IMG/VR virus record: IMGVR_UViG_3300024187_000011
Location: 1-45,052 of that record
Strand: one strand, 5' to 3'
DNA: 45,052 nt
Origin: a virus
Lineage: Duplodnaviria; Caudoviricetes
Under the pieces are notes generated by a model. That model did not search any database and was not told the origin of the DNA. It worked only from the letters and a program-made list of their open reading frames with translations. Below, piece by piece: positions 1 to 45,052 of the stretch. Both the position numbers and the translations under genes were made by a program. The number at the start of each line of letters is the position of its first letter. Position 1 is the stretch's first letter.

Positions 1-13
1 TTCGATTCGTCTC
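1..13. repeat. Terminal direct repeat (copy 1), circularisation overlap
   Basis: TTCGATTCGTCTC at 1-13 is identical to 45040-45052. Confidence 0.9.
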
Positions 14-554
14 GAAAGCGTTTCCAGTACTCCGCGGGCTTCCCGTACTTGCCGGTCGTGTCAGCTTTGTTGATAGCGAACTGCGGTTCGAACTGCCGAC
101 CTCCCCTGGACGGAAGCCGGTCGAAGTCTGGCCGGCGTTGCGCGTCTTCCGCGGATATCCAGCGGTAGCGATACTTCGACTCCCGGCTGTTGCAGCTCCC
201 CGACGCTTCGCCCATCAGCCGATCTCCGCGCCACAGTTGGCAGGTGTACCGATAGAAGAACAGCGCTTCGGTCTGGTCGGTTCCCCAGTCTTCGATGATC
301 TTCTCAGCCACGTATCGCGGCGCGAGTCCGAACAGCGAGCAGAGCTTTTCGGCGCCCGGCTTCAGCAGTTCCGGCTTCCCATAGCCCGGTAAGCTGCCAT
401 AGTCCAGCCCGTCGACCATCACCTTGGCGATGAAGGCGTTGAGTTGTTCCTTGCGCTCGATCGCCTGCTGTACGTTCAGGATCGGCTGGAAGTCTTGCGC
501 CGCGACTTCGCGGGCCTGCACAGTTAAGATTGCTTGCGATGCATCGGACATCAT
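1..554 (-). CDS. N-terminal part of putative single-strand annealing/recombination protein; runs off the left end and continues at the right end
   Basis: Own translation MMSDASQAIL...DYGSLPGYGKPELLKPGAEKLCSLFGL...FFYRYTCQL...GSCNSRESKYRYRW...; open to position 1; ATGA overlap with upstream gene; C-terminal half motif lies at 44476-45052. Confidence 0.7.
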   Translation of the reverse strand, partial: MMSDASQAILTVQAREVAAQDFQPILNVQQAIERKEQLNAFIAKVMVDGLDYGSLPGYGKPELLKPGAEKLCSLFGLAPRYVAEKIIEDWGTDQTEALFFYRYTCQLWRGDRLMGEASGSCNSRESKYRYRWISAEDAQRRPDFDRLPSRGGRQFEPQFAINKADTTGKYGKPAEYWKRFRDES

Positions 555-817
555 GCCGCTCCGTATGCTTCGGTCGCTGTTGTGACATCGGCGATCGAGT
601 TGCTGTCAGTGACCTGGCGCCACACTTCAAATCCATTTCCACCGGGATAGATTTGCACGATGATTCGCGGGCAACCGGGATTTTCGCGCCGCTGCAACAT
701 CTCGAACCTGTGCCCACCGTCTTCCCAGGATTGCAGCGAACGCCAGCCACGACAATGCAGGTCAGAGATAAACGCGCGAGCTTGCGCATCGCGATCAACT
801 TTCTTGGTTGCTGCCAT
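551..817 (-). CDS. Hypothetical protein
   Basis: 88 aa ORF with GAGGA RBS, stop overlaps next start. Confidence 0.7.
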   Translation of the reverse strand: MAATKKVDRDAQARAFISDLHCRGWRSLQSWEDGGHRFEMLQRRENPGCPRIIVQIYPGGNGFEVWRQVTDSNSIADVTTATEAYGAA

Positions 818-920
818 GTTATCCTCGTTTCGTTATTTGATTCGGACACCCCGGGCCTGCGGGGTTAGGCTCCCACAAGCCCGGTCACTCTCGGCCGCTC
901 CCCTACAAATGGGCCGATAC

Positions 921-1103
921 TCAGCGATGCGGTATTACGTCGGTCAGCTTGTCGCATGACTCGCAACGCGCTACCCGCATCAAACCACTTTCGCGAAGCG
1001 CTGGCATTGCAGCCGCGCACGCGGAACACAACATCCGCGGTTCATCCAACGGCTCCAGCAGCCAATCGTAGTCGGTCAAGCTGTCGCCGAAATAATCGCT
1101 CAC
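921..1103 (-). CDS. Small Zn-ribbon-like protein
   Basis: CSAC...CESC; overlaps stop of upstream gene. Confidence 0.55.
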   Translation of the reverse strand: MSDYFGDSLTDYDWLLEPLDEPRMLCSACAAAMPALRESGLMRVARCESCDKLTDVIPHR

Positions 1104-1582
1104 GCTTCACGCTCCACAATCTGCTGAATCATCCGACCGTAGGCCGCTGCCGTGCTCGATCCGGTTCCGCCGTAGCCCCAGCCGCCGCGCACGAACATGC
1201 AGGTAACTTCGCCTTCGACTTCGCCGCCGTGATAGAGCGCTATGTGGTCCGCACTGAACGCGCATTCATCGATGGTCGGAAGCGTTGCCGCGAACTCGCG
1301 GAAGTTTTCGCGCTCTTCGGTCGTCAGCGATCCATCCGGAAGCAAGCGCGGCATGATGTCTTGCCCGTCTGAGAAGACTCCCGCGTTGATCAACTCCAGA
1401 GCGATGTGGCGGTTTTCGGTGCAGGACATCGCGCCCCACCGAAGATCGCGCCGCGAAGAGATGTAGCGCGCGCCGGTCGCTTTCTTGTCGGCTTCGGTCG
1501 TGCGCTCCCACCACAGACGCGCCGCAGTGTCTTCCTCGGGGGTTACGCTCCAGATATCCGTTCGTTCTGCTGTCGTTTCCAT
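1100..1582 (-). CDS. Hypothetical early protein, leaderless
   Basis: 160 aa ORF whose ATG lies 6 nt after the -10 box of the repeated promoter. Confidence 0.75.
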   Translation of the reverse strand: METTAERTDIWSVTPEEDTAARLWWERTTEADKKATGARYISSRRDLRWGAMSCTENRHIALELINAGVFSDGQDIMPRLLPDGSLTTEERENFREFAATLPTIDECAFSADHIALYHGGEVEGEVTCMFVRGGWGYGGTGSSTAAAYGRMIQQIVEREA

Positions 1583-1634
1583 GTAGCAAGTATGCTCCTG
1601 GATATCCGTGGGTTCAATAGTACTTTGACCTTAG
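1583..1634 (-). promoter_or_regulatory. Sigma70-type leaderless promoter with GGATATCC in spacer (copy 1)
   Basis: CTAAGG-N11-TTGAAC-17 nt-CATACT-6 nt-ATG on minus strand. Confidence 0.8.
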
Positions 1635-1649
1635 AAACATACCCAGGTA

Positions 1650-1883
1650 CTAGCTAAGGCGTTTTGCTGGGGGATTGGCTTCGTTGAACTTGGCTTTTGC
1701 GTTCTCAATCGCGAGATATCCAGGGCAACAGTCGCTCAGATCCGCCGTGCACTTGTCGGCATAGCTGTCCAGTTTGGTCTCGCAACGCGCGCAGATCGAT
1801 TGCAACTCGCCCAATTCCTGAACGACAAATGCTAGCTCAGCCTCCAGCCGAGGAGACAGCCGCAAGCCCTTCACCTTCGCCAT
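1650..1883 (-). CDS. Hypothetical Cys-containing protein
   Basis: 77 aa, coupled to upstream gene. Confidence 0.6.
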   Translation of the reverse strand: MAKVKGLRLSPRLEAELAFVVQELGELQSICARCETKLDSYADKCTADLSDCCPGYLAIENAKAKFNEANPPAKRLS

Positions 1884-2164
1884 TACTTGCCCACTCTCGC
1901 GCTGTTCTTCACAATCAAATTCCTCACCAGCGCGGATTTGGATATCCCATGCTTTGAGGCATTCCGGTCAAGCTGGCGATTCAGGGTTACCGGCAGAGAG
2001 ATCAGCACCTTGATCGTCTCGGCCTTCGTCTCCGGAACGTGCATCCGGGTCGGTTTGACGATGTGCTTGCGCGCTTTCTTAATCGCGCCGGCCAGCAGCT
2101 TCACACTCAGCGCCGGCTTCATCTTGCCTTCGCGCATTTTCTTGAGTACTTCGGATCGTTTCAT
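1883..2164 (-). CDS. Ribbon-helix-helix (CopG-like) DNA-binding protein
   Basis: C-terminal KVLISLPVTLNRQLDRNASKHGISKSALVRNLI matches the RHH pattern; GAAGGGG RBS. Confidence 0.7.
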   Translation of the reverse strand: MKRSEVLKKMREGKMKPALSVKLLAGAIKKARKHIVKPTRMHVPETKAETIKVLISLPVTLNRQLDRNASKHGISKSALVRNLIVKNSARVGK

Positions 2165-2263
2165 TTTCCCCTTCCAGTGATGCGGCTAGGTTCGCCGCGA
2201 AGATTCGACAGCTTCTGCATAAGTGGTGCCCCGGATCGGCGTGTGCGTTGCAGGCTGTGCACT

Positions 2264-2680
2264 TCATCGGATGTTGATCTGCTTTCGCATCAGCCCGCTG
2301 GATTTGTACCACTCGACAAAGCCTTCGATGGTTGCCGGGAAGTCGACGCCCGCGATGAGTGTCAGCGCGCCGCGTGCGCGCTCGGCCTGGTGCCAGATTT
2401 GCTGGTGCGATTTTACAGAGGTCGCTTTCTTGAACCGCACGCGTTTCCATTCGATCCACATCACCTGATCAAGCAGTATCACGCGCGAAGTTAAGATGCT
2501 CACCGGGTCGTGCCGCTCGCCTTGGCGATAACGGATGTACAGGTGATCTGCCATTCCCTTTTCCCCGAATCCCTTACCCCACTCACGACGCGATACCGGA
2601 TCGGTGCGCAGCGCCCGCCAACCATCCAACTCCAGCATCTGCGTGCAGGTCTGCTGAATCTGCGCCTCGGTCGGTTTCAT
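2264..2680 (-). CDS. VRR-NUC-like PD-(D/E)xK nuclease / putative Holliday junction resolvase
   Basis: TEAQIQ...GEKGMADHL...WIEWKR...SHQQIW...RGALTLI pattern. Confidence 0.65.
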   Translation of the reverse strand: MKPTEAQIQQTCTQMLELDGWRALRTDPVSRREWGKGFGEKGMADHLYIRYRQGERHDPVSILTSRVILLDQVMWIEWKRVRFKKATSVKSHQQIWHQAERARGALTLIAGVDFPATIEGFVEWYKSSGLMRKQINIR

Positions 2681-2859
2681 GACACCAGCACCACAAATAC
2701 AGGATTGTTGCTGTCCGGATATCTGATCTTGGTATCGCGGATTGAGACGGGTTGATAATCCAGTTGGTTGTGCATGTCTGTCGTCTCCAGCACAAGAGGG
2801 AGGTTGCCCCGCATGGCGCGGATGCGCTGCAACTCTTCGATTGCATCATCAATTTTCAT
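2677..2859 (-). CDS. Hypothetical protein
   Basis: MKIDDAIEELQR..., 60 aa, coupled to downstream gene. Confidence 0.55.
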   Translation of the reverse strand: MKIDDAIEELQRIRAMRGNLPLVLETTDMHNQLDYQPVSIRDTKIRYPDSNNPVFVVLVS

Positions 2860-2962
2860 AGCTTGCCCTTGATGCCGAATAAAACGGCCAACTTCACCGC
2901 TATGGCGATCACCATCAGCACCTGCACGGCACGCCTCAAGATGCGATTTATGCACGGCTCCG

Positions 2963-3127
2963 TCATAGCTTCGCGTCAAACTCCACAGTACACTTCAGAG
3001 GAGGCGTTGTTGCAGGCTGCGCAGTCGTCCAGTTCACACGTATCGTGCTCACCTGCATGCCCTGCTTGTACAGGTCCATCAACGCATCTTGAACCGCTGT
3101 TTTGGCTTGCGCCGGGGTCATTGCCAT
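2963..3127 (-). CDS. Hypothetical protein, leaderless
   Basis: MAMTPAQAKT...; preceded by TTGCAA-16-TAGGAT promoter-like sequence containing two RGATATCY copies. Confidence 0.5.
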   Translation of the reverse strand: MAMTPAQAKTAVQDALMDLYKQGMQVSTIRVNWTTAQPATTPPLKCTVEFDAKL

Positions 3128-3174
3128 GCTGGATATCCTATCATGGATATCTACGTTTGCAAGAGCCGGGAGTA

Positions 3175-3582
3175 CTAAACCACGATGAGTTGGTGATCCT
3201 GCGACTGCCACATGATTTCACGTGTGGCCCGGTTTGTGATAACGCATCCCTCGCTCGCGTCGTTCGCAGCGTTGTTTCCATGTACGAGGAACGAATTGGG
3301 ATCGCGCTTCAGCGAGAGGATGTGCGCCCGCGTTGCATCGTCCGGCTTCAGGCGAATCGAATACGGCCCGGTCTTGAGATGCATCAGAACCAATTCCGTT
3401 AAGGTGTAGGTCCCCGCAGGCAGCGGTCCCCCGGCTGTGATCTTGCCGTTGGTCATCGCGCCGTGCTCGCCTTCCTTCGCGGGATTGTTGCGAGCTGCGC
3501 CGTGTCCCGCGTAAGCCATGCCGGTCACGTGGCCCTGCGGTGCGATGATCTTACCAGCGGCGCGTTCAAATTTCCAGGGCAT
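3175..3582 (-). CDS. Tlde1/DUF2778-type L,D-transpeptidase-fold peptidoglycan enzyme (candidate endolysin)
   Basis: YAGHG...NNP...GPLPAGTY...FLVHG...ASEGCV with the His-x-SxGC catalytic motif; start chosen at MPWKF. Confidence 0.75.
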   Translation of the reverse strand: MPWKFERAAGKIIAPQGHVTGMAYAGHGAARNNPAKEGEHGAMTNGKITAGGPLPAGTYTLTELVLMHLKTGPYSIRLKPDDATRAHILSLKRDPNSFLVHGNNAANDASEGCVITNRATREIMWQSQDHQLIVV

Positions 3583-3626
3583 AAAAAAAGGGGGCGAGTC
3601 GAAAGTATTCTGAACCCGCTCGCCCC
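3583..3626 (-). terminator. Terminator-like hairpin plus T7 directly before the Tlde1 start codon
   Basis: GGGGCGAG...CTCGCCCC followed by TTTTTTT then ATG on minus strand. Confidence 0.55.
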
Positions 3627-3678
3627 ACAAGGAGCAATTGACCCGAATAGCGTATCACGAATCGTGTAGAATTGCGCC

Positions 3679-4164
3679 ATGAGATATCCAGGAATCAGGC
3701 TAGTACTTTGGATTGGTGCTCTGTGGCTCTGCTGCGCGATCGCACGTTGCCAGGTTATCAGCATCGACTGCGGATCACCCACGGATACCGCGTTCGTTGG
3801 CGGTACCGCGTACACAGACGCGACCATTGGGAGCCCGCCACTCAACGCCCTGCGTTACGGCGTGCGCTTCTCATACCGCGTCCCGGCGCCACCCGGCGTG
3901 TACCTGGTTAAGTTGTCCTTTGTCGAACCGAACGCGACAGCGGCTGGCCGGCGACTCTTCACTGTGACCATCAACGGCCAAACCTCGGACGCAATCGATC
4001 TTTTCAAAGAAGTGGGGCTGAAGGTCGAGCACGTGATTCAGACGACGGCGATATCGTACTGGGGATTCGTGAAGATCGACTTCGCCGGCGTCATCGGCAA
4101 TGCGGTTGTGACGCAGATCCAACTTGCCAAGTACCCGGTGGATGCGTTCAGAATTGGCTGGTGA
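3679..4164 (+). CDS. Secreted malectin-like carbohydrate-binding protein
   Basis: Hydrophobic signal peptide, then IDCGS...LRYG...FSYRVPAPPGVYLVKLSFVE...GRRLFTVTING...DLFKEVG...NAVVTQI malectin pattern. Confidence 0.75.
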   Translation: MRYPGIRLVLWIGALWLCCAIARCQVISIDCGSPTDTAFVGGTAYTDATIGSPPLNALRYGVRFSYRVPAPPGVYLVKLSFVEPNATAAGRRLFTVTINGQTSDAIDLFKEVGLKVEHVIQTTAISYWGFVKIDFAGVIGNAVVTQIQLAKYPVDAFRIGW

Positions 4165-4373
4165 GGCGCTTTTCTATAACTTTGCAGGCTCGCGCCATCG
4201 CTGCGAAAATGCGCCGCCCGCGAAGACTTCGCCGCTACCGGTGGAAGCCGCGTCCAGAGATCACAACCTGCTGGTGTAAGCGATGCTTCAAATGCCGCAG
4301 GCGCTATTACATGCGCCGCTGGCGTGCTCGCAAGCGATTCGACATCACGCCACTACTGAGTAAGTCAGCCTGA
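4161..4373 (+). CDS. Small Arg-rich protein with CxCxxC motif
   Basis: GTGA overlap with malectin gene, ends just before a hairpin terminator. Confidence 0.45.
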   Translation: MRRFSITLQARAIAAKMRRPRRLRRYRWKPRPEITTCWCKRCFKCRRRYYMRRWRARKRFDITPLLSKSA

Positions 4374-4377
4374 ACGC

Positions 4378-4413
4378 AAAACGACCCCGGATGTTGCGGA
4401 ACATCCGAGGTCG
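4378..4413. terminator. Intrinsic terminator between convergent genes
   Basis: CGACCCCGGATGTT-gcgg-AACATCCGAGGTCG hairpin with a T-run on the minus strand. Confidence 0.7.
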
Positions 4414-4444
4414 ATTGCTGCACGGGGACTGCCCCACAGATTGA

Positions 4445-4951
4445 TTACGGTACGTTCGGATCGATCGGCACGTCCGGTTGTTCAGTTACCGGCCCGGGCG
4501 TCAGAACAACGCTGGCCGCTTGACCGGCTGTTACATTTACCGCCAAGGTTCCGACCAACGGCACAACCCCAGCACCCAAATCCGCATCAGCAGAAAGAGT
4601 GATGGATGCCGAGCCGATCGCACCTACGGCTGCGACAGTTGCCGACATGCCATCCGGAGCCGCCGTCACCTTCAGAACATCGGTGTTGTCTGTCGACCAT
4701 TGAGGCGTCCCGTCTACGGGAGCCGGGTTCCCCTTCTTGTCGACAAAGGCCACTGAAACGCTGAATTGCTGCGTAATCGAGATATCCACTTTTGTTTTCC
4801 TTTCTCCATCCACGTAAAAGATTACTGCGCTCGCTTCGCCCGGCTTCAGCAGACCCAGGATCTCATCGCAGGTATCCTGAAGCGTTTTCAATCGCCTTAT
4901 CGTTTCGATTGAATTTCTAAAGATCGTATAGAGATATCCAAAGAAGTTCAC
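4445..4951 (-). CDS. Ig-like domain protein
   Basis: VAFVDKKGNPAPVDGTPQWSTDNTDVLKVT...DGMSATV...GSASIT bacterial Ig-like pattern. Confidence 0.6.
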   Translation of the reverse strand: MNFFGYLYTIFRNSIETIRRLKTLQDTCDEILGLLKPGEASAVIFYVDGERKTKVDISITQQFSVSVAFVDKKGNPAPVDGTPQWSTDNTDVLKVTAAPDGMSATVAAVGAIGSASITLSADADLGAGVVPLVGTLAVNVTAGQAASVVLTPGPVTEQPDVPIDPNVP

Positions 4952-4955
4952 GGGA

Positions 4956-5138
4956 TCAGAATATCACACGCAGCCCTTTGGGGAAAATGAAAAGCCGCTG
5001 CATCTCTGCAACGGCCCTCTCAACGTCGCGCTGGATCGTAGCCCGATCCGGCGCCCATGTCCCGATGGCCTGCGTGCCCCATGAGCCAGTGGCCCACAGA
5101 CCGCCATGCTTCTCGGAAACGTGGAAGCGAATCGTCAT
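4956..5138 (-). CDS. Hypothetical protein
   Basis: 60 aa ORF in a tightly packed minus-strand run. Confidence 0.5.
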   Translation of the reverse strand: MTIRFHVSEKHGGLWATGSWGTQAIGTWAPDRATIQRDVERAVAEMQRLFIFPKGLRVIF

Positions 5139-5804
5139 CTAATCAACCTTGTCGGCTCGCTCGAATTGCCCGTGCTGCATCAGTTGGAACCGAGCTTCAC
5201 CCGGTGCAGTTTTGCCGACCGGAATCCGGAAGCCGTAGGCGTCGACGCGCACGAGCGCACCGTTGAAGCCCGACGTATCCGATTCGTACTCCGTCTGCTG
5301 GTTCCAGTTCTGCCGTGGGTTGCCGGTCGGCGTCATGCCGGCTGTGATCATCAGCGGATAGGCCGTGGCGTCGATACCGAGGCTGAACCGCGGCCCGCTC
5401 TGCGTCGGATCTTCCACCCACAACTGACGCGGTGGAGCGCCGCCGCCCGCTATATACGCGTCCAGGTCGAATACCGGGAAGTCATCCGGATTCGTAGACT
5501 GCGGCGTGATGCGGTTTTTCTCGACGTCCGGGAGTTTGTAGCCGACGACGTACTTGACGCCCTGCCGCACGCGCTGCGCCATCACAGCATCGACGCCCTC
5601 ATGCCGACCGAGCACCAGCACTTCATCGACCGGGATTCCGTCCAGTGCGCACTGCTCGACCAATTTCAAAACGCGATTGTTCGCGTCGGCTGTGCTCTGA
5701 ATGAGCATGATTTCGGCAACGCGCGGGTGAAGGTATTGCGCCCAGGCGTTGTAAAGGTTACTGCGTTGTGCGCTGTAGAGCGACGGATACGGCTTATAAG
5801 ACAT
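5139..5804 (-). CDS. Hypothetical protein
   Basis: 221 aa, AAGGA RBS, typical codon usage. Confidence 0.75.
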   Translation of the reverse strand: MSYKPYPSLYSAQRSNLYNAWAQYLHPRVAEIMLIQSTADANNRVLKLVEQCALDGIPVDEVLVLGRHEGVDAVMAQRVRQGVKYVVGYKLPDVEKNRITPQSTNPDDFPVFDLDAYIAGGGAPPRQLWVEDPTQSGPRFSLGIDATAYPLMITAGMTPTGNPRQNWNQQTEYESDTSGFNGALVRVDAYGFRIPVGKTAPGEARFQLMQHGQFERADKVD

Positions 5805-5983
5805 TGGTGATCCTTTCCAGTACTGACTTTGCGTTTCAGGATATCCCGGATCTTTTGCGGCGTCAACCTAGCGCCACGATCCACTCGGTATCTTAGAGAA
5901 GATCCTAGCCAGCCGGATACGTGCTGCGGCTTCGCGAATCAGACGAGCGAGTACGGCGTTGCGTTCGTTCACAAGTGCGCTAT

Positions 5984-6295
5984 TCATTTTTTCTCCACTG
6001 GAATGTGAACCAGTTCCAGCGTGTCTCCTTCGTTCATCGTAACCGGCTTGTCGAACAGGACATCGTTGATGCCGGTTATTTGCATCGGCGTGACGATCTG
6101 CAAACGCTGAGTCATTTCCCCGGCCTGCCTGAATGTGATCTGCTGCATGGTCGATAGCTTGGCTCCTCCGTGACGCGGGCATGGTCCGCCGCCGATACGC
6201 TTCGTGTTCCAGAGGCAATTTGGCGTTGGGCAATAATCCTCCGGGTGCTTCGCCTTGTTCGCTGCGACCTTCGCCGCTACTTGTCCGCGATTCAT
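5984..6295 (-). CDS. Hypothetical protein
   Basis: 103 aa, GGAGGGAG RBS. Confidence 0.65.
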   Translation of the reverse strand: MNRGQVAAKVAANKAKHPEDYCPTPNCLWNTKRIGGGPCPRHGGAKLSTMQQITFRQAGEMTQRLQIVTPMQITGINDVLFDKPVTMNEGDTLELVHIPVEKK

Positions 6296-6567
6296 CGTTG
6301 CTCCCTCCGAAAGCGGATCACCGCTTCAATCCACGCGTTATAACATGCGATGCGCCAGAGGCTCCCGGCCTTGGCGAAGCCGCACTTGTAAACCTGCTCA
6401 TCGGCTTGAATGAACTGAGTGCGCGCGATGCGTAACTGCTCACGTGCGGTCATCGTCAAGGTCCTCCATTCTGCGCTCGAACCAGTCAGCGCGTCGGTGA
6501 TCGGTAGACTTTGGGATTGCGCGGATGCCGAACCACAGCGCGATTGCCGCTACCAGAATGAAGAGGA

Positions 6568-6753
6568 TCATATCGTGAACACGTCCACCCGGAAGTGTCC
6601 CTCGTTAACGAACTCGACGCAGTTTGCCGCGAAGATATTGCGTTCGCGAGTAGCGTAGCGCACCAGAACAGTGGCCCGCGAAATACCATCACTGAAAGAG
6701 AATGATCCGGCTACCGGCATCGTTTTTGCTTCGGCGTATGTGATCGGTTGCAT
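6568..6753 (-). CDS. Hypothetical early protein, leaderless
   Basis: ATG 6 nt after the -10 box of the repeated promoter. Confidence 0.65.
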   Translation of the reverse strand: MQPITYAEAKTMPVAGSFSFSDGISRATVLVRYATRERNIFAANCVEFVNEGHFRVDVFTI

Positions 6754-6805
6754 GAACCAATAATGCGCTGGATATCCGCACAGTGCAATCGGTAAATCGC
6801 CTTAG
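6754..6805 (-). promoter_or_regulatory. Sigma70-type leaderless promoter with GGATATCC in spacer (copy 2)
   Basis: CTAAGG-N11-TTGCAC-17 nt-CATTAT-6 nt-ATG. Confidence 0.75.
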
Positions 6806-6815
6806 TGTCCTAGTA

Positions 6816-7145
6816 CTATCGTTTGGATTTGGTGTTGTCTGCGATGCGCCCGCCGATTTCGGCGATCTTCTGATTTACTTCGTTCGCTTCTTTGTAGGCG
6901 TCGTCGGCTTTGGCTGCTGCGATCACAGAGACGGCGGTATTTTCGTCCAGCTTTTCCGTCTGCCGGTCGAGTTTTCCTGCCATCAAATTGCGATGGTCAG
7001 CCGTGAGCTTCGCGGCAAGTTCCCGGTCTGCGCGGTCCTGCTCGCGATCGAGACGCCGCCGCCGTTCATCGAAGTGACTCTTGACGATGTTGCCGAGTAG
7101 CGCGGCTACCGTCGTAATCAAGAGCGCGGTCGTCGTGGCATCCAT
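6816..7145 (-). CDS. Membrane-anchored coiled-coil protein (possibly lysis-associated)
   Basis: N-terminal TM (TALLITTVAALLGNIV) then charged helix; start MDATTT after GATAAT -10-like box. Confidence 0.6.
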   Translation of the reverse strand: MDATTTALLITTVAALLGNIVKSHFDERRRRLDREQDRADRELAAKLTADHRNLMAGKLDRQTEKLDENTAVSVIAAAKADDAYKEANEVNQKIAEIGGRIADNTKSKR

Positions 7146-7164
7146 TCGCGCGATTATCGCACGA

Positions 7165-7317
7165 TCAGGCTGTGACCATCGTGGACAGCACCCACGCTGC
7201 AAGGCCCGCGTTTGTCAGGCTCCATCGGTACGGATTGGGATCGGCACGCTAGGCAGCAGCCACGATGAAGCAAACCAGCGCAAGGCATCTGAGAATGAGG
7301 GACCAAGGTGCGTTCAT
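7165..7317 (-). pseudogene. Small two-TM membrane protein interrupted by an in-frame TAG
   Basis: MNAPWSLILRCLALVCFIVAAA*RADPNPYRWSLTNAGLAAWVLSTMVTA; TAG at 7249-7251. Confidence 0.55.
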
Positions 7318-7388
7318 GCCCCAAGCGTCGCACATTGAAACACCCAGCGCTAGCGGGGTATCCCCCAAATGCTATGCTGTTGGATTCC

Positions 7389-8036
7389 ATGCCCGAGCTG
7401 CTTTACACAGCCTTTGCACTCGCCGCGGGCTCTCTATTCTGGCGATGGTGCCACGTCGGACTGAATCGCGATCACGGATATTGGGCCGGATACCTCGCGC
7501 ACCTTCCCCTCGCAGCTTTCGCATGGGCCTTGCAGCTCTGGGACACCTCCCGCTGGATATCCGTGCTCGGCAACTTTGGCCTGATCTGCTGCGCCTTTGA
7601 AGCTGCGCGAGCCTGCGGGTGGTGGATCATCCCCCAGCTTGAACGCAGATGGGTGCTGGTTTCTGCCGGTGGGGTCGGTCTGTGGATGTCCGCAGCAATC
7701 GCGTCAGTGATCGAAATCCCGAACGATCAGAACTGGACGCACTACCTCATCAAGGCGTGTGCGCCGGCGTGCGCGATCGGCATCATCGTCTCGGCGTGGG
7801 CGTATCAGCGAATCGCAATGGATCGCGGCGCGAACAATTCCCGGAACGCATGGCACGCTTGGTTGCTTGCCGGATACTGCGCACTCAATGTCTTCAATGC
7901 CGTGTTTTATTGGCATCCCAGCGAGCCGGCATGGGCCTTGCAAACCGGAGTGACCGTGACGCTCAAGATCGGTCTGTTTATCTGCTGGTGGTTCAAGGTC
8001 TGCCCGCTCCATCATCGCCGCGCCCTACCAGTTTGA
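7389..8036 (+). CDS. Polytopic (about 7 TM) membrane protein
   Basis: Multiple hydrophobic segments; start MPELL after TGC-TATGCT -10-like box. Confidence 0.75.
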   Translation: MPELLYTAFALAAGSLFWRWCHVGLNRDHGYWAGYLAHLPLAAFAWALQLWDTSRWISVLGNFGLICCAFEAARACGWWIIPQLERRWVLVSAGGVGLWMSAAIASVIEIPNDQNWTHYLIKACAPACAIGIIVSAWAYQRIAMDRGANNSRNAWHAWLLAGYCALNVFNAVFYWHPSEPAWALQTGVTVTLKIGLFICWWFKVCPLHHRRALPV

Positions 8037-8220: not shown

Positions 8221-8230
8221 GCTCCCCGCG

Positions 8231-8389: not shown

Positions 8390-8411
8390 GCGGACTATTC
8401 TAGCGGAATTA

Positions 8412-8941: not shown

Positions 8942-8947
8942 CGGAAT

Positions 8948-9227: not shown

Positions 9228-9233
9228 AAAGTA

Positions 9234-12580: not shown

Positions 12581-12583
12581 CGA

Positions 12584-14470: not shown

Positions 14471-14472
14471 CG

Positions 14473-15238: not shown

Positions 15239-15245
15239 CGCCCTA

Positions 15246-15638: not shown

Positions 15639-15639
15639 G

Positions 15640-19845: not shown

Positions 19846-19864
19846 TTCCTGTAAGTGTACAGGG

Positions 19865-26212: not shown

Positions 26213-26563
26213 GTGAATTACAATTGGGACTTGCCCGAACAAGCGAAACAGTCTGCCGACGTTCCACGTGGAACACCTGCGCTCGGAATGACCGCGCTGT
26301 GCACCAAATGCGGGCTTAACCCCAAGACACGCACGCATTTATGGTGCGCTGAGTGCCGCTCGGAGTATGGAAAGCGCCAGCGAGTTGACCGTTTGACGCG
26401 CGCCGAACGCCGCGGCTTCCTCATCGGCGCCCGGTTGATGCGTGACGAAGTGGTCGCGCTGTTTATGCGGCTTGGGGATTCGGGGATGAACGGGACGGCC
26501 GCGGCCCAGCTGGTACAGGCACGCCTCCAGCCGGATCAATTGGGGGTTCCTCGATTGGATTAG
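26213..26563 (+). CDS. Antisense hypothetical Zn-finger protein
   Basis: CTKC...WCAEC; lies in the gap between portal and protease and overlaps portal 3' end; start uncertain. Confidence 0.5.
   Translation: MNYNWDLPEQAKQSADVPRGTPALGMTALCTKCGLNPKTRTHLWCAECRSEYGKRQRVDRLTRAERRGFLIGARLMRDEVVALFMRLGDSGMNGTAAAQLVQARLQPDQLGVPRLD
26260..26275. promoter_or_regulatory. parS: parS-like centromere site
   Basis: CGTTCCACGTGGAACA, 15/16 to TGTTCCACGTGGAACA with a perfect 14-bp palindromic core. Confidence 0.7.
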
Positions 26564-36170: not shown

Positions 36171-37659
36171 GCTTGATCAGCTCCATGCCGTAGTTGTTCG
36201 GATCTTCTGAGACTTCCAGGCCGGGCTTCGGAATGAACTTGTTCGCCTTGAACGGTCGGTAATCAACTTGGTGCTGCCAGCGTCCCCACTTCCGAGTGAT
36301 CGTCACAACGTCGGGGTGCTGGTCGCGAAGTGACTCGGCCATCTTCGTGCGGCCGTCGCCTTTGTACAACTCATCGGTATTCCCGCCTTTCATTTTCATG
36401 GTTTCCATTTTCCAGGACAGGAACGCGTTGAACTGCACCGTACACCAGCCATCTTTCAGCGCTCTCAGTGACAGGTCGGTGTCTTCGTTGTAGCGCCCGC
36501 GCCAGCGGTAAGGAATGTCGTTTTTGATCAGGATGCACGAATAGATCCGCGTGTTAGCGACAAACGGCGGCAGCTTCTGTTTGCGCTTCGCCAGGAATCG
36601 ATAGTTGAAGCCAGCCAGCGCGACGTTCGTATAGCGCTCGGCGAAGTCTTCCGCAGCGAGAAAAGCAGCGCCGGTTTTCATCTGGATTCGCAGGTTATTG
36701 TGGAGCCGCAGGAACTGGCTGATATTGTCGTCCAGAATCCAGTGGCGAGCGTGCCCTTCGCTTACCGAGTGCTCCCAAACCCAATTACGCGCCGGTATCG
36801 AGCCTTGCCCCAGGTTGCTGAACGGAAGCACCAGGATCTTAGCCGGATCGAGTACGGCGGCGTACTCTTCGCGCTCTTGCGGCTCGATCACGATCCGATA
36901 GGGCACGTGCATGGCTTCCAGAGCTTTGCTGGTGAGTCTGGTTTGCCACCGGCCTTTCGAGATGATGTAGACCGGATATCTCGGGTCGGTCGGCTTCGGC
37001 GTCGAATAGGCTTTGTCGGCTACCTTGGCTTCTTTCGCCTTGGGGTGCCATACGAATTTCGTTGAATCGGTGATTGTCTGGCCGATGAGCTTTCCGAACG
37101 CGATGCGGTCGGCTTTCTTTTCAAAGTGCACCTTGACGGTCTGCCACGGCATCAGGTCGTCTTGCTTGAAATCCGGCATCCCCTTCCATTCGGGCTTGAT
37201 GCCGTTCAACAGCCCGTCGATCTGCATCGACTCGAACCCCGTTAGGCTCAGATCGAGATTCAGCCCCTGCAGCTCTGTGAACTCGCCGGCGAGAATACCT
37301 AGGTCCCAGGTCGCTTCTTCATGCGACCGGTTATCCATCAGCCGGTAGGCTTTGCGCTGCGCCGCGGTCAAGCCGTGCGCAACGTGCACCGGAACAAGTG
37401 CCAGGTCGAGGGACTGTGCCGCGAGTAACCGGGTGTGCCCTACCAGAATCGTGTCATCCGGCTCGCAGACAATCGGTTGCCGCCATCCGAACTCTTTTAA
37501 GCTGGCTGCGACTTTCGAAACCGCCCGGTCGGATATCTTCCGTGCGTTCTTAGCGTAAGGCTTCGGTCGGTCGATGGGCCACCATTCGATTGCGAAGACG
37601 TTCGTTTTTTCTTGTTCGGACAGAATCGGAGGGTTTGGGGTTGAAGTTTTGCGCGGCAT
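36160..37659 (-). CDS. ParB/Srx N-terminal domain fused to GREB1-like / TET-associated glycosyltransferase
   Basis: N-terminal PYAKNAR...SLKEFGWRQPI...LVGHTRLLAA...YRLMDNR; C-terminal YPVYIISKGR...IEPQE...ARNWVW...HWILDDNI...WRGRYNEDTDLSLR...GGNTD. Confidence 0.85.
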   Translation of the reverse strand: MPRKTSTPNPPILSEQEKTNVFAIEWWPIDRPKPYAKNARKISDRAVSKVAASLKEFGWRQPIVCEPDDTILVGHTRLLAAQSLDLALVPVHVAHGLTAAQRKAYRLMDNRSHEEATWDLGILAGEFTELQGLNLDLSLTGFESMQIDGLLNGIKPEWKGMPDFKQDDLMPWQTVKVHFEKKADRIAFGKLIGQTITDSTKFVWHPKAKEAKVADKAYSTPKPTDPRYPVYIISKGRWQTRLTSKALEAMHVPYRIVIEPQEREEYAAVLDPAKILVLPFSNLGQGSIPARNWVWEHSVSEGHARHWILDDNISQFLRLHNNLRIQMKTGAAFLAAEDFAERYTNVALAGFNYRFLAKRKQKLPPFVANTRIYSCILIKNDIPYRWRGRYNEDTDLSLRALKDGWCTVQFNAFLSWKMETMKMKGGNTDELYKGDGRTKMAESLRDQHPDVVTITRKWGRWQHQVDYRPFKANKFIPKPGLEVSEDPNNYGMELIKHVK

Positions 37660-37728: not shown

Positions 37729-38046
37729 TCAGTCCGAGATGATCACCCAGGCGTTGCGACCGCTGCGCGTTTGCCGGCGTTCTGCCGTCTTAATTGCCAG
37801 TTTCATCTGCACCAACTCTCGCAATCGAGCGCTTACAGTCTGATGGCGCATTTCGAGCGCTACTTCGATTTCGTCGGACGTGCCCCCGGTCGCGCCGCGA
37901 TCCTTCAACCATTGCAGGATCTGGTTGCGTAGCCGTGACTTATCAGGATGAATCGATTCGTTCGCTTCCTCGCTGCATTCGTCCCCGCCGTGAAACGCCC
38001 GGCATACGTCGGGCGTTGGCTCATCGAAAAGGCTCGGCTGCTTCAC
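37729..38046 (-). CDS. Winged-helix DNA-binding protein
   Basis: GGTSDEIEVALEMRHQTVSARLRELV...RRQTRSGRNAWV. Confidence 0.8.
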   Translation of the reverse strand: MKQPSLFDEPTPDVCRAFHGGDECSEEANESIHPDKSRLRNQILQWLKDRGATGGTSDEIEVALEMRHQTVSARLRELVQMKLAIKTAERRQTRSGRNAWVIISD

Positions 38047-38522
38047 TGGTACCGGTTGATCGTGTGCGTCGGCTCGCGCCGTTGCGGTTGCTGAACTCTT
38101 CGCAGGATATCCGCTAAGTCAATGACGTGCATAGCGTGATCACACTTTCGGAACACTTCAAGCATCGCTTCGCCGTTCGTGACGACGCACGCCGCCCGCT
38201 GCGTGCTGCCAGGTGTCGGGTCTACGACGAGCCACAGTTCGTCGCTAAAGTTCATGAGCCTGTCGAAATCCATGTGCTTCCAGCACTGGCGCTGCATCTG
38301 CCGCAGTGGGCGCCGGATGGCCTGCAGGCTCAGCCCGCGCTTTCGCAGCTCGGCGATGACTGCGATGTCGACAGCTTCCTGGTTCGAGTAGATCCGTCTG
38401 TGGCCGTGATGATGCGGTTGCACGACGCGCTTTTCGTCCCACCATTGAAGCTGCCTGAGTGAAACGCCCGCAATGCTGGCTACCTGGTTCGTTGAAAGTG
38501 TTTGGTGTGTCATGTGAAACAT
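38043..38522 (-). CDS. MerR-family HTH transcriptional regulator
   Basis: STNQVASIAGVSLRQLQWWDEK...HRRIYS...ELRKRGLSLQAIR. Confidence 0.85.
   Translation of the reverse strand: MFHMTHQTLSTNQVASIAGVSLRQLQWWDEKRVVQPHHHGHRRIYSNQEAVDIAVIAELRKRGLSLQAIRRPLRQMQRQCWKHMDFDRLMNFSDELWLVVDPTPGSTQRAACVVTNGEAMLEVFRKCDHAMHVIDLADILRRVQQPQRREPTHTINRYQ
38506..38521. promoter_or_regulatory. Second parS-like site (degenerate)
   Basis: TGTTTCACATGACACA on minus strand, 14/16 to TGTTTCACGTGAAACA, overlapping the MerR start. Confidence 0.45.
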
Positions 38523-38569
38523 CTTGCCTTCGTTCTGTCGATTTGTCCATAGCCCTACAGTCCTAGGAC

Positions 38570-40270: not shown

Positions 40271-40545
40271 GCCCATACGTCGTAATCTCCACATCCAGCG
40301 ACAAGCGCACGGCATACTTCGATCAGCAGGCTTTCGTCTTGAATTGAGGCAATCGAGTCGCTGATCCGAATGATCTGCCACTCGTGAAGATCCTCCGCAA
40401 GGCTGTGACCGTCCTGGTATTCCAGGAAGTCGCAATGGTCCGGGAATCTCTTTTTCAGATAGTCCACTACGAGCACCGCCGTGCGCTGCTTTCGCGCGCA
40501 TCCGATGATGTGATTAATTTGTTTCGGCTCCTGGGGCTCAGCCAT
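40267..40545 (-). CDS. Hypothetical protein
   Basis: 92 aa, coupled on both sides. Confidence 0.6.
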   Translation of the reverse strand: MAEPQEPKQINHIIGCARKQRTAVLVVDYLKKRFPDHCDFLEYQDGHSLAEDLHEWQIIRISDSIASIQDESLLIEVCRALVAGCGDYDVWA

Positions 40546-41339
40546 TAGATTTTCCCTTCTGTGATTCCCAGCGGGTACTGACGCACTCGGAGCTGTGGCG
40601 GGATATCTTCAAGCTGCGCTTTAGTGCGACCCGACATCTGCTTGAAGTGAAACGCTACGCCGGCTTCTCTGCATTGATCCTTCAGCCGGATCGCCGCGGC
40701 GACATCTATCGGCGTTGCACGGCTCCCGCTTTCGCCGCCCACGATTACCCAGGCTCTGCTACCGAGCGCGAGAAAGTCTTCCGGCAGTGTGAGCGCGCCG
40801 AACATCGGCTCGATCGATAGCCAGTACACTGCGGCTTGAACTTCGCGCAGATGCCGCCAGCGAAGTTCAAGCCAGTCCTGACGCTCCGCTGTGATGCCTT
40901 GCCAGACTCGCGGGTGATTCTTCACCGGCATCAGTTTGTTGATCAACTGGGGCCGCTTCGTGAGCATCAGCCAATAGAGCGCAAGTGTTGCGTTGATCGT
41001 GTAGCCGAGCCGTTCAAGATGTGGCTTTTGATCCGGTCGCCCTTCGGCCCAGTCACCCATCGACATGCAGAACGCTCGCGCCATGATGCCGGACAGTTCG
41101 GCGTCACGGCTCCACTTCAGCGGTTCATTCCAGTGCTTCGCGCCAAATGTGCGCCGCCCGGTGTCTGCTCCCCATATCGGGAACTTGTTCACGTCGGTCG
41201 GGTTCGGCCCGTAGCCGACGCGATTCGCGAAGGTTTCTGCATAACAGGTATCGCAAGCCGGGGAACCTTCGATCTTCGTGCAGCCCCACCACGGATTGAA
41301 CGTGTGGTGCGCCCAGGAAATCGCTGTATCTTTACCCAT
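40545..41339 (-). CDS. DUF5131 / Gp37Gp68 family (radical-SAM-like three-Cys) protein
   Basis: TAISWAHHTFNPWWGCTK...CDTCYAE...LTKRP...LSIEP...WVIVGGESG...FHFKQ. Confidence 0.9.
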   Translation of the reverse strand: MGKDTAISWAHHTFNPWWGCTKIEGSPACDTCYAETFANRVGYGPNPTDVNKFPIWGADTGRRTFGAKHWNEPLKWSRDAELSGIMARAFCMSMGDWAEGRPDQKPHLERLGYTINATLALYWLMLTKRPQLINKLMPVKNHPRVWQGITAERQDWLELRWRHLREVQAAVYWLSIEPMFGALTLPEDFLALGSRAWVIVGGESGSRATPIDVAAAIRLKDQCREAGVAFHFKQMSGRTKAQLEDIPPQLRVRQYPLGITEGKI

Positions 41340-41653
41340 TACGCACGCTCCCGAACTGCTTCACGCAATTCTTCCTCGATCGACCCGCTGATTGTCCGGT
41401 GCCATCGCGCTACAGCGCGGCTGCGCGCGTCGACGCCATCGGCGTATCCTAACAGGCTCCCCGCCGCCCGGCGTGCAATCGTGCCGCGTTTCTGCCAGCT
41501 CAGCGCCAAACCTAAGAGCGCACCCGCAGCCAGCATCGCCAGCACCGGATATCGGTACGCGTCGACCGAGTACGCGACTCCGCCCAAGAAAGCAACGATA
41601 ACCAGCATCACGCGGCCGGCGAAACTCTCGACACGGTTCTTTGAGTTATTCAT
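41339..41653 (-). CDS. Two-TM membrane protein
   Basis: Two hydrophobic segments; coupled to DUF5131 gene. Confidence 0.6.
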   Translation of the reverse strand: MNNSKNRVESFAGRVMLVIVAFLGGVAYSVDAYRYPVLAMLAAGALLGLALSWQKRGTIARRAAGSLLGYADGVDARSRAVARWHRTISGSIEEELREAVRERA

Positions 41654-41659
41654 ACTCTG

Positions 41660-41891
41660 AAATCAATCCTGTAAGAATAGAAGATTATAAAGCACTGTTG
41701 AAATGTTGAAAACCGGCATAGCTCCTGGAAACTACAAGACTTGCTGAAATGAAATCCTGTTGATTTCGCTGTGCATGACGGTTGAAAACTTCGGCGTCCT
41801 AGAAAATACTCACAGAGCAGGCGAATTTTCAACAGATTATGCACGTGGTTTACTTCCTTTTTGCACTGCCTTTTCAACAGCCTGTTGAAGC
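41660..41891. other. Putative oriC-like replication origin (DnaA-box cluster plus AT-rich unwinding tract)
   Basis: AT-rich stretch; TGTTGAAAT 41696, TGTTGAAAA 41704, TGCTGAAAT 41742, TGTTGATTT 41758, TGTGCATGA 41770, GGTTGAAAA 41780, TTTTCAACA 41826 and 41871, TTATGCACG 41837, TTTTGCACT 41859, TGTTGAAGC 41883. Confidence 0.7.
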
Positions 41892-42310
41892 ATGTTATGG
41901 ATGGAATCCGGCAGCGTCCAGACACGTTGACCACCTGAACAGTAGATCGGTGGAACGCAGAGCAGTACCGGCTTCAGCTTCCAGGCGAAACGCCCGGGCG
42001 AGTAGTCCCCGAAGAAATGCTCTGCGAGTCGTGGGGCTTTCCCAGTCGTCGCGAGCACTTCAACGATGTCGAACACGCCGAGAATGCAGCCGGTCGGTAT
42101 GATGTGATTCTGCAAGGCGTCTCGAAAGCGTTTGACTTTCTGGACTTCATGAACAGGTCGCTTCGCAGCGTGTAGCGCGATCCTGGTAACGCCGGAAGGT
42201 GGACGCCATGAGCGAGTTTCGAACCGCTTCGCTTCGATCGCTACCAGCGTAGCCCACGGTTGCCAGAGAGTCAGGCCGCGAATGATTGGTGACCCAAAGG
42301 AAGTTTGCAC
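41837..42310 (-). CDS. ASCH domain protein
   Basis: GLTLWQPWATLVAIEAKRFETRSW...IALHAAK...GCILG...FGDYSPGRFAW...GGQRVW. Confidence 0.85.
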   Translation of the reverse strand: MQTSFGSPIIRGLTLWQPWATLVAIEAKRFETRSWRPPSGVTRIALHAAKRPVHEVQKVKRFRDALQNHIIPTGCILGVFDIVEVLATTGKAPRLAEHFFGDYSPGRFAWKLKPVLLCVPPIYCSGGQRVWTLPDSIHNMLQQAVEKAVQKGSKPRA

Positions 42311-42399
42311 GTCATCCCCCCAAGGATGCGGGCCGAGCGTTGGGGCGCCCGGCCCTATGGTTCATCTCTCGCCAGGTGTCCGGCGATTCAAGCAGTCTA

Positions 42400-42885
42400 T
42401 CAGTTCGCCGGCAGCTTGCCTTGCTTGTCGTCTTCCGGCGTCTCTGTGAGCGTCCCCTGCTTCGGCTGGGGCTCGTGGCTGATCGTCACCGACGATTTAC
42501 CCTTGCCGCAGTGAATCTTGAACTCTTCCAGATACCGGCATCCGGTCGGATCGTTGAAGTCGACCGTGAAATGCAACTCCCACCGGTGACCCTTGCCGCG
42601 CTTGCCTTCGACTTCGTACTTCACCAACTCGAAGCCGTACACAGTCGTGATGTCGATTTCGATGGTGAACTTTTCCAGCGGGCCGTCGCTGGGTTTGATC
42701 GTCATCTTGCGGCCGGTCAGTTCGCCTTCGAGCTTGCTGCTTTTCTGATAGTCAACTACTTCGCCCCACTCCATCGCTTCTTTGATGGCGTTGGTGTAGC
42801 TCGCGCTGAACTTCGCCGAGCCTGAAGAATCGCCGCGGCTGAACGATTTCAGCACAGCACTGGTAAACGTAACGGTCTTAGTCAA
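42400..42885 (-). CDS. Hypothetical protein
   Basis: 161 aa, TTG start with AAAGGA RBS, strong codon bias. Confidence 0.7.
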   Translation of the reverse strand: MTKTVTFTSAVLKSFSRGDSSGSAKFSASYTNAIKEAMEWGEVVDYQKSSKLEGELTGRKMTIKPSDGPLEKFTIEIDITTVYGFELVKYEVEGKRGKGHRWELHFTVDFNDPTGCRYLEEFKIHCGKGKSSVTISHEPQPKQGTLTETPEDDKQGKLPAN

Positions 42886-42920
42886 TGGGATATCCTTTCG
42901 TCCAAGTTGAAAACGCCTGA

Positions 42921-43139
42921 CTACTTTATCCGAAGTGGTTTCGATTGTCCAGTGGCTTTGTGCTCAAACGGGCATGGCGTGCCGTGCTGCGCAAACCATG
43001 TGCAATCCAACAGCGGCTTGTTATGCACGCTGATCAGCACGTGTGCTGCGCAGTCGCGACACCACGGCTCATTAGGTGAGCAGCACTGACGCCCGCAGCA
43101 TCCACAAAAATCATTCTTGCCTCGAACGAAATCGTTCAT
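42921..43139 (-). CDS. Small Cys-rich protein
   Basis: CGCCG...WCRDC...CPF; ATGA coupling. Confidence 0.55.
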   Translation of the reverse strand: MNDFVRGKNDFCGCCGRQCCSPNEPWCRDCAAHVLISVHNKPLLDCTWFAQHGTPCPFEHKATGQSKPLRIK

Positions 43140-43870
43140 TTGATTCTGAGATGTTCTCCGCGGTCAAGCAGTACCGCGCCTGGTACCGATCCAACGTAAA
43201 CGCGGCATGTGTCTTTGCATAGTGCGCACGGCCCCGGCTGCGGATCTTCGGCATACGCTGTGCAATTGGGGCACGGTCCCTCTACCATCAGATCCTTGCG
43301 GATTAGTTCAGTGTCCGGTTCGATCGGCTTAGCTTTTTCCTTCACAAGCCGATCAGTCCACGCGCACGTGATTTCCAACTCTTCTTTTTCGATTCCCGTT
43401 ATCGTCAGTGTGTAGCGCTGGTACTTCGCCGGAAGTAGCTCAGGTTGCCTCACTTCTACCGGCTGCGCTCCGCCGTTGCCCCACCGCCGCAGTTCGCTGA
43501 CGTCGCCCTTGACGAACTTGACGCCGAGCTGCTGTAGAACTTCAAGCGCAATTGCCTTGACGCGATCGGCGCGGGCTTCGCGAGCTTTCGCCAGGTCGTA
43601 GCACCGATCAGCTTCCGCCTTCGCGGTTGCGGCGCCGCCCTCTTCGGATCGGATGAACGCCGCGACCCCATCGGCTTTCTTGACCAGTTCCGTGACACAG
43701 AGACGCAGCGCGGTTTCGCACTGGTCCACAACATCCTTGGCCTGCGCGAACTCAAGCGCGGTCCCGTGAAGCAACGCGGCATCGCGCAACTCAATCAAAA
43801 CTTCGCGCTGCGAAACAAGATCCGCGAGCAGAGAGGGGAACTCTCTGAATGTTAAGCTATGCTCGCTCAT
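43136..43870 (-). CDS. Siphovirus Gp157-like protein with Zn-finger insertion
   Basis: KADGVAAFIR...AKAEADR...PELLPAKYQ...PDTELIRKDL...VPGAVLLDRGEHLRIK. Confidence 0.75.
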   Translation of the reverse strand: MSEHSLTFREFPSLLADLVSQREVLIELRDAALLHGTALEFAQAKDVVDQCETALRLCVTELVKKADGVAAFIRSEEGGAATAKAEADRCYDLAKAREARADRVKAIALEVLQQLGVKFVKGDVSELRRWGNGGAQPVEVRQPELLPAKYQRYTLTITGIEKEELEITCAWTDRLVKEKAKPIEPDTELIRKDLMVEGPCPNCTAYAEDPQPGPCALCKDTCRVYVGSVPGAVLLDRGEHLRIK

Positions 43871-44082
43871 GTGATCAGCGCTCCCTGTTTGTCGTCGCCG
43901 CGTGGCTTTCCGGCGTCGGCGCGTTCGCTCCGCAGCTTGATACCGCTCTTCAGTTTTGCGATGGGCTCGCGCAGGTGCGCCGCGAGTGAATCACCGTCTA
44001 CAGTTTCCAGTTCCCGCAATAGGAACCGAGCATTTTCAAGGCGCGCCAGGTCCATCACGCGCGAATACTCTTCGTTGGTCAT
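43867..44082 (-). CDS. Hypothetical protein
   Basis: MTNEEY...RSERADAGKPRG; ATGA coupling. Confidence 0.55.
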   Translation of the reverse strand: MTNEEYSRVMDLARLENARFLLRELETVDGDSLAAHLREPIAKLKSGIKLRSERADAGKPRGDDKQGALIT

Positions 44083-44498
44083 TTGCCCCTTTCGGCTGCG
44101 TACTGAGCACGCAGCGCCGCGATGATTTTCAAACGGTTCAATCCGTACTTCTTCCAGAATGCTTTGCCGATCTGGTGATCCAGTTCGTGATGATGCGCCC
44201 GGCATCCGGGTAGCGCTGTGTGGTCCGATGCCTTCTGAGATATCCCGTGCGGCCCGGTGTGCATCGCCTCGGAGTATATCTGCGGGAGCCTTCGCATTAT
44301 GAAAATGCCCTTGTTGCCTTCGCGCGCCCACAGCATGAACGCACTGCGCCAACACGCGATGCACGGCCACAGCCTGATCCATGCGAGATACTTCGGATCG
44401 CGCGCCGGTCCCGTTCGCAACACCGACGCGCGTTTCCGCTGCGGCTTGCCCCTGTTCGGCCGCAGAGCCGTAGGCTTACGCTTTGGTTTTTTCTGCAC
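44079..44498 (-). CDS. HNH-like Zn-binding nuclease (DUF968-like)
   Basis: RDPKYLAWIRLWPCIAC...EAMH...GISQKASDHTALPGCRAHHHE...FWKKYGL. Confidence 0.75.
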   Translation of the reverse strand: MQKKPKRKPTALRPNRGKPQRKRASVLRTGPARDPKYLAWIRLWPCIACWRSAFMLWAREGNKGIFIMRRLPQIYSEAMHTGPHGISQKASDHTALPGCRAHHHELDHQIGKAFWKKYGLNRLKIIAALRAQYAAERGK

Positions 44499-45052
44499 GT
44501 GCCTGCATTTCCTTCAAGGCTGAATAAAGCGCTCGAACTGCCAGAATCCAGTAAATAGTTTTGTCCTTCGCCTTGCCGGGTTCGCCGTGCTGTCGCACGA
44601 AGCTGGTCCAGGTGCGTTCGGACATCTCGGAGCCCATCAGTTCCTTGATCGCCATCATGAGATCGCCTGCGGTCGGCTCAGCTTCATTTGAGTCAGCAGC
44701 TATTTTCTTCAACAGTGCAGTTAGCTTTTCGTCGTCAGGCTCGGCTTGCCGCTGGTCAGCCTTGCTGCTCTCTTGCGCCATGCGCTGCTGCTGCACTTCT
44801 GCTTGCGCGACCGTCGGGCCGTCGTGCAAGTCTTCCAGGTCTTGCGTGAACGCGTCGCTGGCATTCGTCACGACCAGCACTGCGGCAACCAGTGCGCGCT
44901 TCTGCGAGATTTTCAGAACGGTGTTGACTTGATCGGCTACGTCTGGATTTGCAACGCGGTAGACCGTCGTGTCAATCTCCCAGCCGTCGTACTTTTTCGC
45001 GCCCATCTGACGATCGGTAATCTTAGTCGCTGTGCCGTCTTCGATTCGTCTC
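44476..45052 (-). CDS. C-terminal part of putative single-strand annealing protein (continuation of 1-554)
   Basis: NPDVADQVNTVLKISQKRALVAAVL...ASDAFTQDLED; frame is open to the window end. Confidence 0.7.
   Translation of the reverse strand, partial: RRIEDGTATKITDRQMGAKKYDGWEIDTTVYRVANPDVADQVNTVLKISQKRALVAAVLVVTNASDAFTQDLEDLHDGPTVAQAEVQQQRMAQESSKADQRQAEPDDEKLTALLKKIAADSNEAEPTAGDLMMAIKELMGSEMSERTWTSFVRQHGEPGKAKDKTIYWILAVRALYSALKEMQARAEKTKA
45040..45052. repeat. Terminal direct repeat (copy 2)
   Basis: Identical to positions 1-13. Confidence 0.9.

Follow-up and report, generated by a model that had tools for sequence, protein, structure and literature searches.

A probable host-DnaA-opened origin in the place of an initiator gene in a 45-kb phage

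An oriC-like module in a closed phage genome

The stretch analysed here, called the window, comprises all 45,052 nucleotides of a tailed-phage record (IMG/VR IMGVR_UViG_3300024187_000011). Between 41.65 and 41.89 kb, in the gap between two genes plus the final codons of an ASCH gene, it carries a module that resembles the basal unwinding system (BUS) of bacterial oriC, with binding sites (boxes) of the DnaA type and triplets in the register of DnaA-trios. Its features are listed below.

41654..41891, minus strand: oriC-like module with eight DnaA-type boxes, trio-register triplets and an AT-rich end
41696..41712, minus strand: tandem box pair with a one-base overlap, as in the dnaA-dnaN module of the likely host
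41770..41788, minus strand: two more boxes, pointing toward the trios
41826..41879, plus strand: four boxes of opposite orientation, two of them exact TTTTCAACA and three inside the 3′ end of the ASCH gene
41680..41691, plus strand: four NAN triplets in the register of DnaA-trios, at 3 bp from the proximal and 12 bp from the distal box
41684..41712, minus strand: sigma-70-like promoter with 10/12 matches, lying over the tandem boxes and the trios

The four distal boxes point away from the trios and the four proximal ones toward them. The boxes are of the TTTTCAACA variant, three exact copies of which occur in the genome, all inside the cluster. Eight boxes within 250 bp compare with a maximum of 4 in 300 simulated genomes, the pattern having been picked after seeing the window, and four further NAN triplets in a shifted register lie at 41672-41683. 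In PMC8287927, the search rule for a BUS asks for three or more NAN trios no farther than 16 bp from a box, and the distance between distal box and trios peaks at 10-13 bp. The phage module is like this system in its tandem boxes, in at least three trios within 16 bp (a rule that is loose in AT-rich DNA) and in the 12 bp from the distal box; it differs in lying away from dnaA and in having variant boxes and imperfect trios. Thus, of the DnaA-box/trio cluster described at 41.67-41.89 kb in the initial annotation, the cluster itself holds, with boxes of the TTTTCAACA type rather than the canonical TTATCCACA, which is not present in it, and with trios that are present but imperfect.

The phage genome is complete. 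Although the record describes it as linear and gives a completeness of 60% (CheckV), an incomplete linear contig is ruled out by the alignment of a split gene and by a contig across the junction. The window ends have 13 bases in common and cut one gene, the two parts of which match residues 24-198 and 201-335 of a single protein of the relative G006. Moreover, a single 45,070-nt contig from run X1 spans the record junction, with record positions 8-20000 and 40400-45047 adjoining, and because it has one extra base at the junction the split gene is back in frame. X1 is possibly the window's own source, so that this contig would be a re-assembly and no second sample; runs X2 and X3 gave just short low-depth pieces, with the origin region uncovered. 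The apparent completeness claimed earlier is thus borne out against the record label: the genome is a closed circle of 45,040 bp, and many contigs carrying portal homologs are 40-48 kb in length. The module sits in this closed circle without dnaA or dnaN, outside the location of a chromosomal oriC.

Host motif, missing genes and the replication slot

Among portal relatives from named genomes, the top three all belong to Acidobacteriota, and homologs of a MerR-like protein of the window (37-42% identical) occur in four of five of these Acidobacteriota genomes. We infer a host of Bryobacteraceae type, and the window is a 45-kb soil phage, likely of Acidobacteria. A host matrix was built from 32 sites after dnaA, i.e. 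the 30 best-scoring of 61 searched genomes in the family of a Bryobacteraceae bin and two more, with host sites anchored by a rule of our own; these sites have a common tandem box pair before dnaN. On this matrix the phage tandem pair scores 27.8 bits, which compares with a leave-one-out range of 12.0-29.5 for the host sites, 10.4 bits for the next site in the window and 21.2 for the highest-scoring of 100 simulated genomes. In 2.5 Mb of portal-family DNA, all loci stay below 18 bits. The box pair is therefore matched to the presumed host, as in a BUS. One near-complete host genome has a single copy of a strict form of the motif, directly after dnaA, and four others have no match to it; DciA was found in all five host-family genomes. 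A scan of genomes for an inverted-box pattern gave hits in scattered taxa, without a clear signal of an origin.

Searches with Pfam and PHROGs (83 open reading frames, ORFs) and NCBIfam (59 ORFs) detected no initiator, helicase, primase, polymerase, integrase, CI or ParA in the window. Initiator profiles were home-made from the initiator-like proteins of 13 relatives (leave-one-out recovery 12/13, E <= 2e-5), and their best E values were 1.3 in the window, 0.07 in the related phage G100 and 0.03 in the related locus L484 (in an antisense frame), i.e. no match. Four integrases of other phages, used as queries, matched nothing in the window or G100. Hence three libraries and the home-made profiles find no phage-encoded initiator of lambdoid type in the early region. 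The initial annotation had listed these gene classes as unrecognisable, and had proposed a profile and structure search for an initiator hidden among the hypothetical ORFs; the absences hold at the sensitivity used (three libraries, initiator profiles, integrase queries), and the checks made for a hidden initiator yielded none. What its inventory overlooked is a likely Rad52/Sak-type annealing gene split by the contig break.

Relatives were gathered via the portal (whole) and via a neighbouring gene for a 161-aa protein (25 replication-slot loci, the window among them); portal single-protein searches and two tandem-box scans of viral contigs gave no useful close relative. An initiator-like gene or a helicase gene occupies the slot, with no more than three boxes per 250 bp, in 15 records of 14 lineages (G006, G007, G008, G009, G010, G019, G020, G021, the G001 and G002 phages, L475, L488, L491, L494 and L497). 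Seven of these genes are labelled initiator or DnaD-like by PHROGs and one DnaB, the others being assigned on our own profiles or weak Pfam matches. Three lineages, namely the window, G100 and L484, have 7-8 boxes and no initiator in the slot (3 vs 14 lineages, Fisher test p = 0.0015, kinship uncorrected; the duplicates L476, L479-L481, L490, L492 and L478 counted once). G100 is complete with terminal repeats, and 56 of its non-structural ORFs give no replication or integration match, the same pattern as in the window; in L484 the early region from tail to terminase is covered (16.5 of 39.4 kb). Trios in the window's register number seven consecutive in G100 and six in L484, and are cleaner than those of the window. 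A sister of L484, L498, has six boxes, and L486, which is too short for scoring, has five boxes and host-like trios.

In a tree of the 161-aa protein, most branches of which are weak, the two slot states are interspersed, and L484, which has the module, groups as sister to the initiator-bearing L497 with 99/91 support. Since these sisters differ in slot content, at least two switches must have occurred. In L475 and L497, two or three boxes lie inside or just 5′ of the initiator gene, which is possibly an intermediate arrangement. No early protein is exclusive to module-bearing phages, the common ones being found in initiator-bearing relatives too. Integrase is also undetected in many initiator-bearing relatives, and its absence is therefore not distinctive of the window phage.

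Several observations were made on these and other records. One relative lies within a 5.18-Mb chromosome contig (L308-L310, G001:C2, ~4.537-4.579 Mb) with no integrase or att repeats detected, and may be a true prophage or a mis-join. In G020 the initiator-like gene is on the opposite strand to its neighbours (L314:1091-1777). A 16-kb viral fragment (G098, L343:15700-16293) ends in 14 boxes within ~230 bp, and L393, with weak head/tail-gene kinship, has a host-like tandem pair. About ten microvirus-sized gut contigs carry a textbook box-plus-trio module (L342:200-700, L412, L389, L415, L407, L402, L369, L425, L361 and L471); the available parts of the microvirus literature found make no mention of a DnaA box.

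A probable DnaA-opened origin and its alternatives

Taken together, these data suggest that the 41.65-41.89 kb module is the replication origin of the phage, opened by host DnaA and probably used in place of an initiator. The initial annotation had proposed that the phage mimics host chromosome signals; the replication half of that idea is supported, because the boxes match the likely host origin motif and because cluster and initiator gene alternate in one slot, whereas the mini-chromosome half is not. By analogy with the basal unwinding system, host DnaA would bind the boxes, form a filament on the trios and open the AT-rich stretch. Host DnaB would then be loaded, probably with host DciA, and the host replisome would copy the circle; the annealing protein and the nuclease might take over later, for recombination-driven amplification, a step that is faintly suggested. 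In the window phage, DnaA on the boxes would also cover the promoter, and downstream expression could be tied to origin firing.

A number of facts weigh against the module being a DnaA-only origin. An unrelated gut phage, the temperate 39-kb G096 (L324:9850-10050), has a textbook module and two exact parS sites, and also encodes primase, polymerase, helicase, SSB, integrase and repressor; two gut microviruses that were opened (L342, L412) retain a Rep-like ORF, recognised by eye, beside the module. Because G096 and the microviruses keep their own replication genes, the motif alone is no proof of sole-origin use, and the case for a DnaA-only origin thus depends on the exchange between module and initiator gene. 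In that comparison the initiators of relatives are known from profile labels, some of them weak, the closest relatives (portal 57-81% identical) are not included, eight further loci (too short or unresolved) stand outside the count, and L477, over 16.5 kb, shows neither a box cluster nor an initiator-profile match. Moreover, the host reference module is an origin by position and analogy only, and in 26 of the 32 host sites the first run consists of a single trio. Trios are imperfect in the window and decayed in L498, and the best promoter of the window region coincides exactly with the boxes.

This promoter bears on a second explanation, in which the boxes are a control device: DnaA would repress or time the promoter, or be titrated to slow host replication, and the phage DNA would be copied through recombination-dependent restart or from a second origin that has escaped notice. 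Such a device would account for the 10/12 match over the tandem boxes, for modules in phages with their own replication genes and for the two or three boxes inside or before the initiator genes of L475 and L497, and the annealing-protein candidate and the nuclease of the window would provide for restart. However, four related modules lack a promoter of this strength (best 8/12 or none), so that strong overlap is confined to the window phage, and two of the four have kept the trio register; a regulator or sink would also give no reason to exclude an initiator gene. We therefore consider a control device unlikely.

It is quite improbable that the phage has an initiator too divergent for detection which uses the 9-mers as iterons, perhaps helped by DnaA. 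The 9-mers fit the host motif, no iteron array is present in the window, and early proteins common to module-bearers recur in initiator-bearing relatives, although many ORFs are unexplained, including a 123-aa orphan and the first of the two genes below.

37729..38046, minus strand: gene for a 105-aa winged-helix protein, the sole free-standing DNA-binding candidate for a hidden initiator
42400..42885, minus strand: gene for the 161-aa protein, a family marker upstream of the replication slot and present with both origin types

For the winged-helix protein, neither G100 nor L484 yielded a homolog, and longer homologs were not found, which is weak evidence. The 161-aa product is a small beta-barrel in its model, which argues against an initiator, and a fold search gave no clear match. 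Atlas searches of the 123-aa ORF and of a 368-aa ORF returned nothing, the latter leaning weakly to Ea22-like proteins, and a 160-aa ORF has just 7 unnamed homologs, with no initiator clue.

That the module is captured host origin DNA without a selected role is very improbable and largely refuted by its conservation, since, despite a tandem pair near-identical to host sequence, the conserved host promoter motif before the pair is missing in the phage, diverged modules lie in the same slot at four other loci, and on this view no means of starting phage replication is known.

In lambdoid phages, which need an O-type initiator of their own, DnaA sites and a promoter lie close to the origin. The window module lies in the same gene slot, after recombination genes, likewise with DnaA sites and a promoter, but the slot contains a cis element only, with no initiator detected, where lambdoid phages have the O-type gene. 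DnaA assistance at lambdoid origins is treated in the available portions of PMC3985674 and PMC7466680, and for a Pseudomonas phage DnaA boxes were predicted by Ori-Finder, as given in the accessible part of PMC11512268. In the literature searched, with most subscription journals outside it, no phage is described in which host DnaA and a BUS take over from an initiator.

In many complete phage genomes no replication gene can be recognised, which is usually attributed to undetected homology. In the window phage, a cis element copying the host origin appears to stand in for the gene; close relatives that have or lack the module offer a natural comparison. If true, this would be a phage replicon that starts without any phage protein, and it would show a path of origins from Rep-driven through DnaA-assisted to DnaA-only; the module would also be useful as a signal for host prediction and, at 240 bp, as a candidate origin for Acidobacteria vectors.

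parS, persistence and other features of the genome

Two parS-like palindromes had been reported initially, and only the first proved sound.

26260..26275, no strand: intergenic palindrome of the host parS type, 98 bp 5′ of the head protease gene
38506..38521, no strand: parS-like site with two mismatches, overlapping what is likely the start of the MerR-like gene

The 14-bp core of the first site (26261-26274) is identical to sites in the host-family genomes G047 and G077, and an exact parS was found in 0/300 simulated genomes. The second was rejected, as two-mismatch sites appear in 33/300 simulated genomes, which is chance level. All five host-family genomes have 2-4 exact parS each, within 25 kb of dnaA in four. 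Among related viral records parS occurs in 7/30, against 1/30 for a reversed control. In 24 records examined, nine have parS, five of these 90-359 bp before the protease gene (3 of the five initiator-bearing); the position before this gene is kept in G100, G007, G009 and G019. Because initiator-bearing relatives have it too, parS is not tied to origin type, and it lies beside head genes, 15 kb from the module. The initial annotation had asked whether relatives conserve both elements: the box cluster is conserved, only in module-bearing lineages, and parS is found with both origin types. To judge by this distribution, parS is a selected family trait, separate from the origin, and the single good site likely docks host ParB.

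Persistence of the phage as an episome, also proposed initially, is doubtful: parS is common to initiator-bearing relatives and 15 kb off, the second site is at chance level, and no clear repressor switch, ParA or credible dif-like site was found in the window. A dif-like pattern gave one weak match in the window, at a gene position, and none in G100. Regulators in the window are small RHH-like, MerR-like and winged-helix proteins, with no CI match, and the recognised genes are all on one strand. Partition genes of its own, which would mark a phage-plasmid, are absent along with ParA, the sole ParB-like part being an N-terminal domain fused to a glycosyltransferase (Pfam, PHROGs). A wider scenario also seems rather unlikely, in which this family of Acidobacteria phages repeatedly traded an initiator for a DnaA-only origin and then became a host-run mini-chromosome with host parS and without integrase, ParA or Rep, whose replication would start in step with the cell cycle and whose segregation would depend on ParB, ParA and SMC of the host.

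Host-type parS on phage DNA without own partition genes is also seen in the Bacillus phage phi29, which has five such sites, serving entry into the prespore according to the available text of PMC2731898; the window phage differs in having one good site, before the head protease gene. Extrachromosomal mycobacterial prophages have their own parABS and RepA or RNA-based origins, and the accessible part of PMC7157519 leaves DnaA and oriC unmentioned. According to the same text they resemble the window phage in lacking integrase and, in some cases, a RepA initiator; they differ in that the window has no ParA and a parS of host type.

Further genes of the window are as follows.

3..554, minus strand: first half of a likely Rad52/Sak-type single-strand annealing gene, cut by the contig break
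44476..45051, minus strand: second half of this gene
43136..43870, minus strand: Siphovirus Gp157 / Mu Gam-like gene (Pfam, PHROGs)
2264..2680, minus strand: endonuclease gene, of a family labelled endonuclease / Holliday junction resolvase by PHROGs in relatives

A low-confidence model of the G100 homolog of the split gene (mean pLDDT 52) has Rad52 as top match (Z 8.1, rmsd 3.5, 116 aligned), tied with dsRBD, and the gene's position is taken by a RecT-like gene in G008 and an Erf-like gene in G002. Thus, the product is likely an annealing protein of Rad52/Sak type.

The minus strand holds all recognised genes (terminase, portal, protease, capsid, tail tube, tape measure, a sugar/methyl-transfer block and small early genes), and GC skew, a one-way drift, is uninformative because all genes lie on one strand. 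Scans of the window found no tRNA, no Rfam family and no iteron array. Glycosyltransferase and methyltransferase genes form a block between terminase and portal (28600-33996 and 36160-37659), which is family-wide and, together with a ParB-N / TET-associated glycosyltransferase fusion, could serve decoration of virions or DNA. A host-like RRM RNA-binding gene (33923-34291) and the MerR-like regulator (38043-38531) have Acidobacteria homologs. In the lysis region (3175-3630), a Tlde1 / L,D-transpeptidase-like domain perhaps belongs to an unusual endolysin. A 43-bp repeat, 86% identical, stands immediately 5′ of two early genes (1576-1618 and 9169-9211), with looser copies near 5840 and 6770, and these are possibly early promoters or operators. 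GATATC occurs in 56 copies in the window (1-45052), against ~7 expected from base composition and 12-13 in three similar-sized relatives, possibly as a modification or regulator site.

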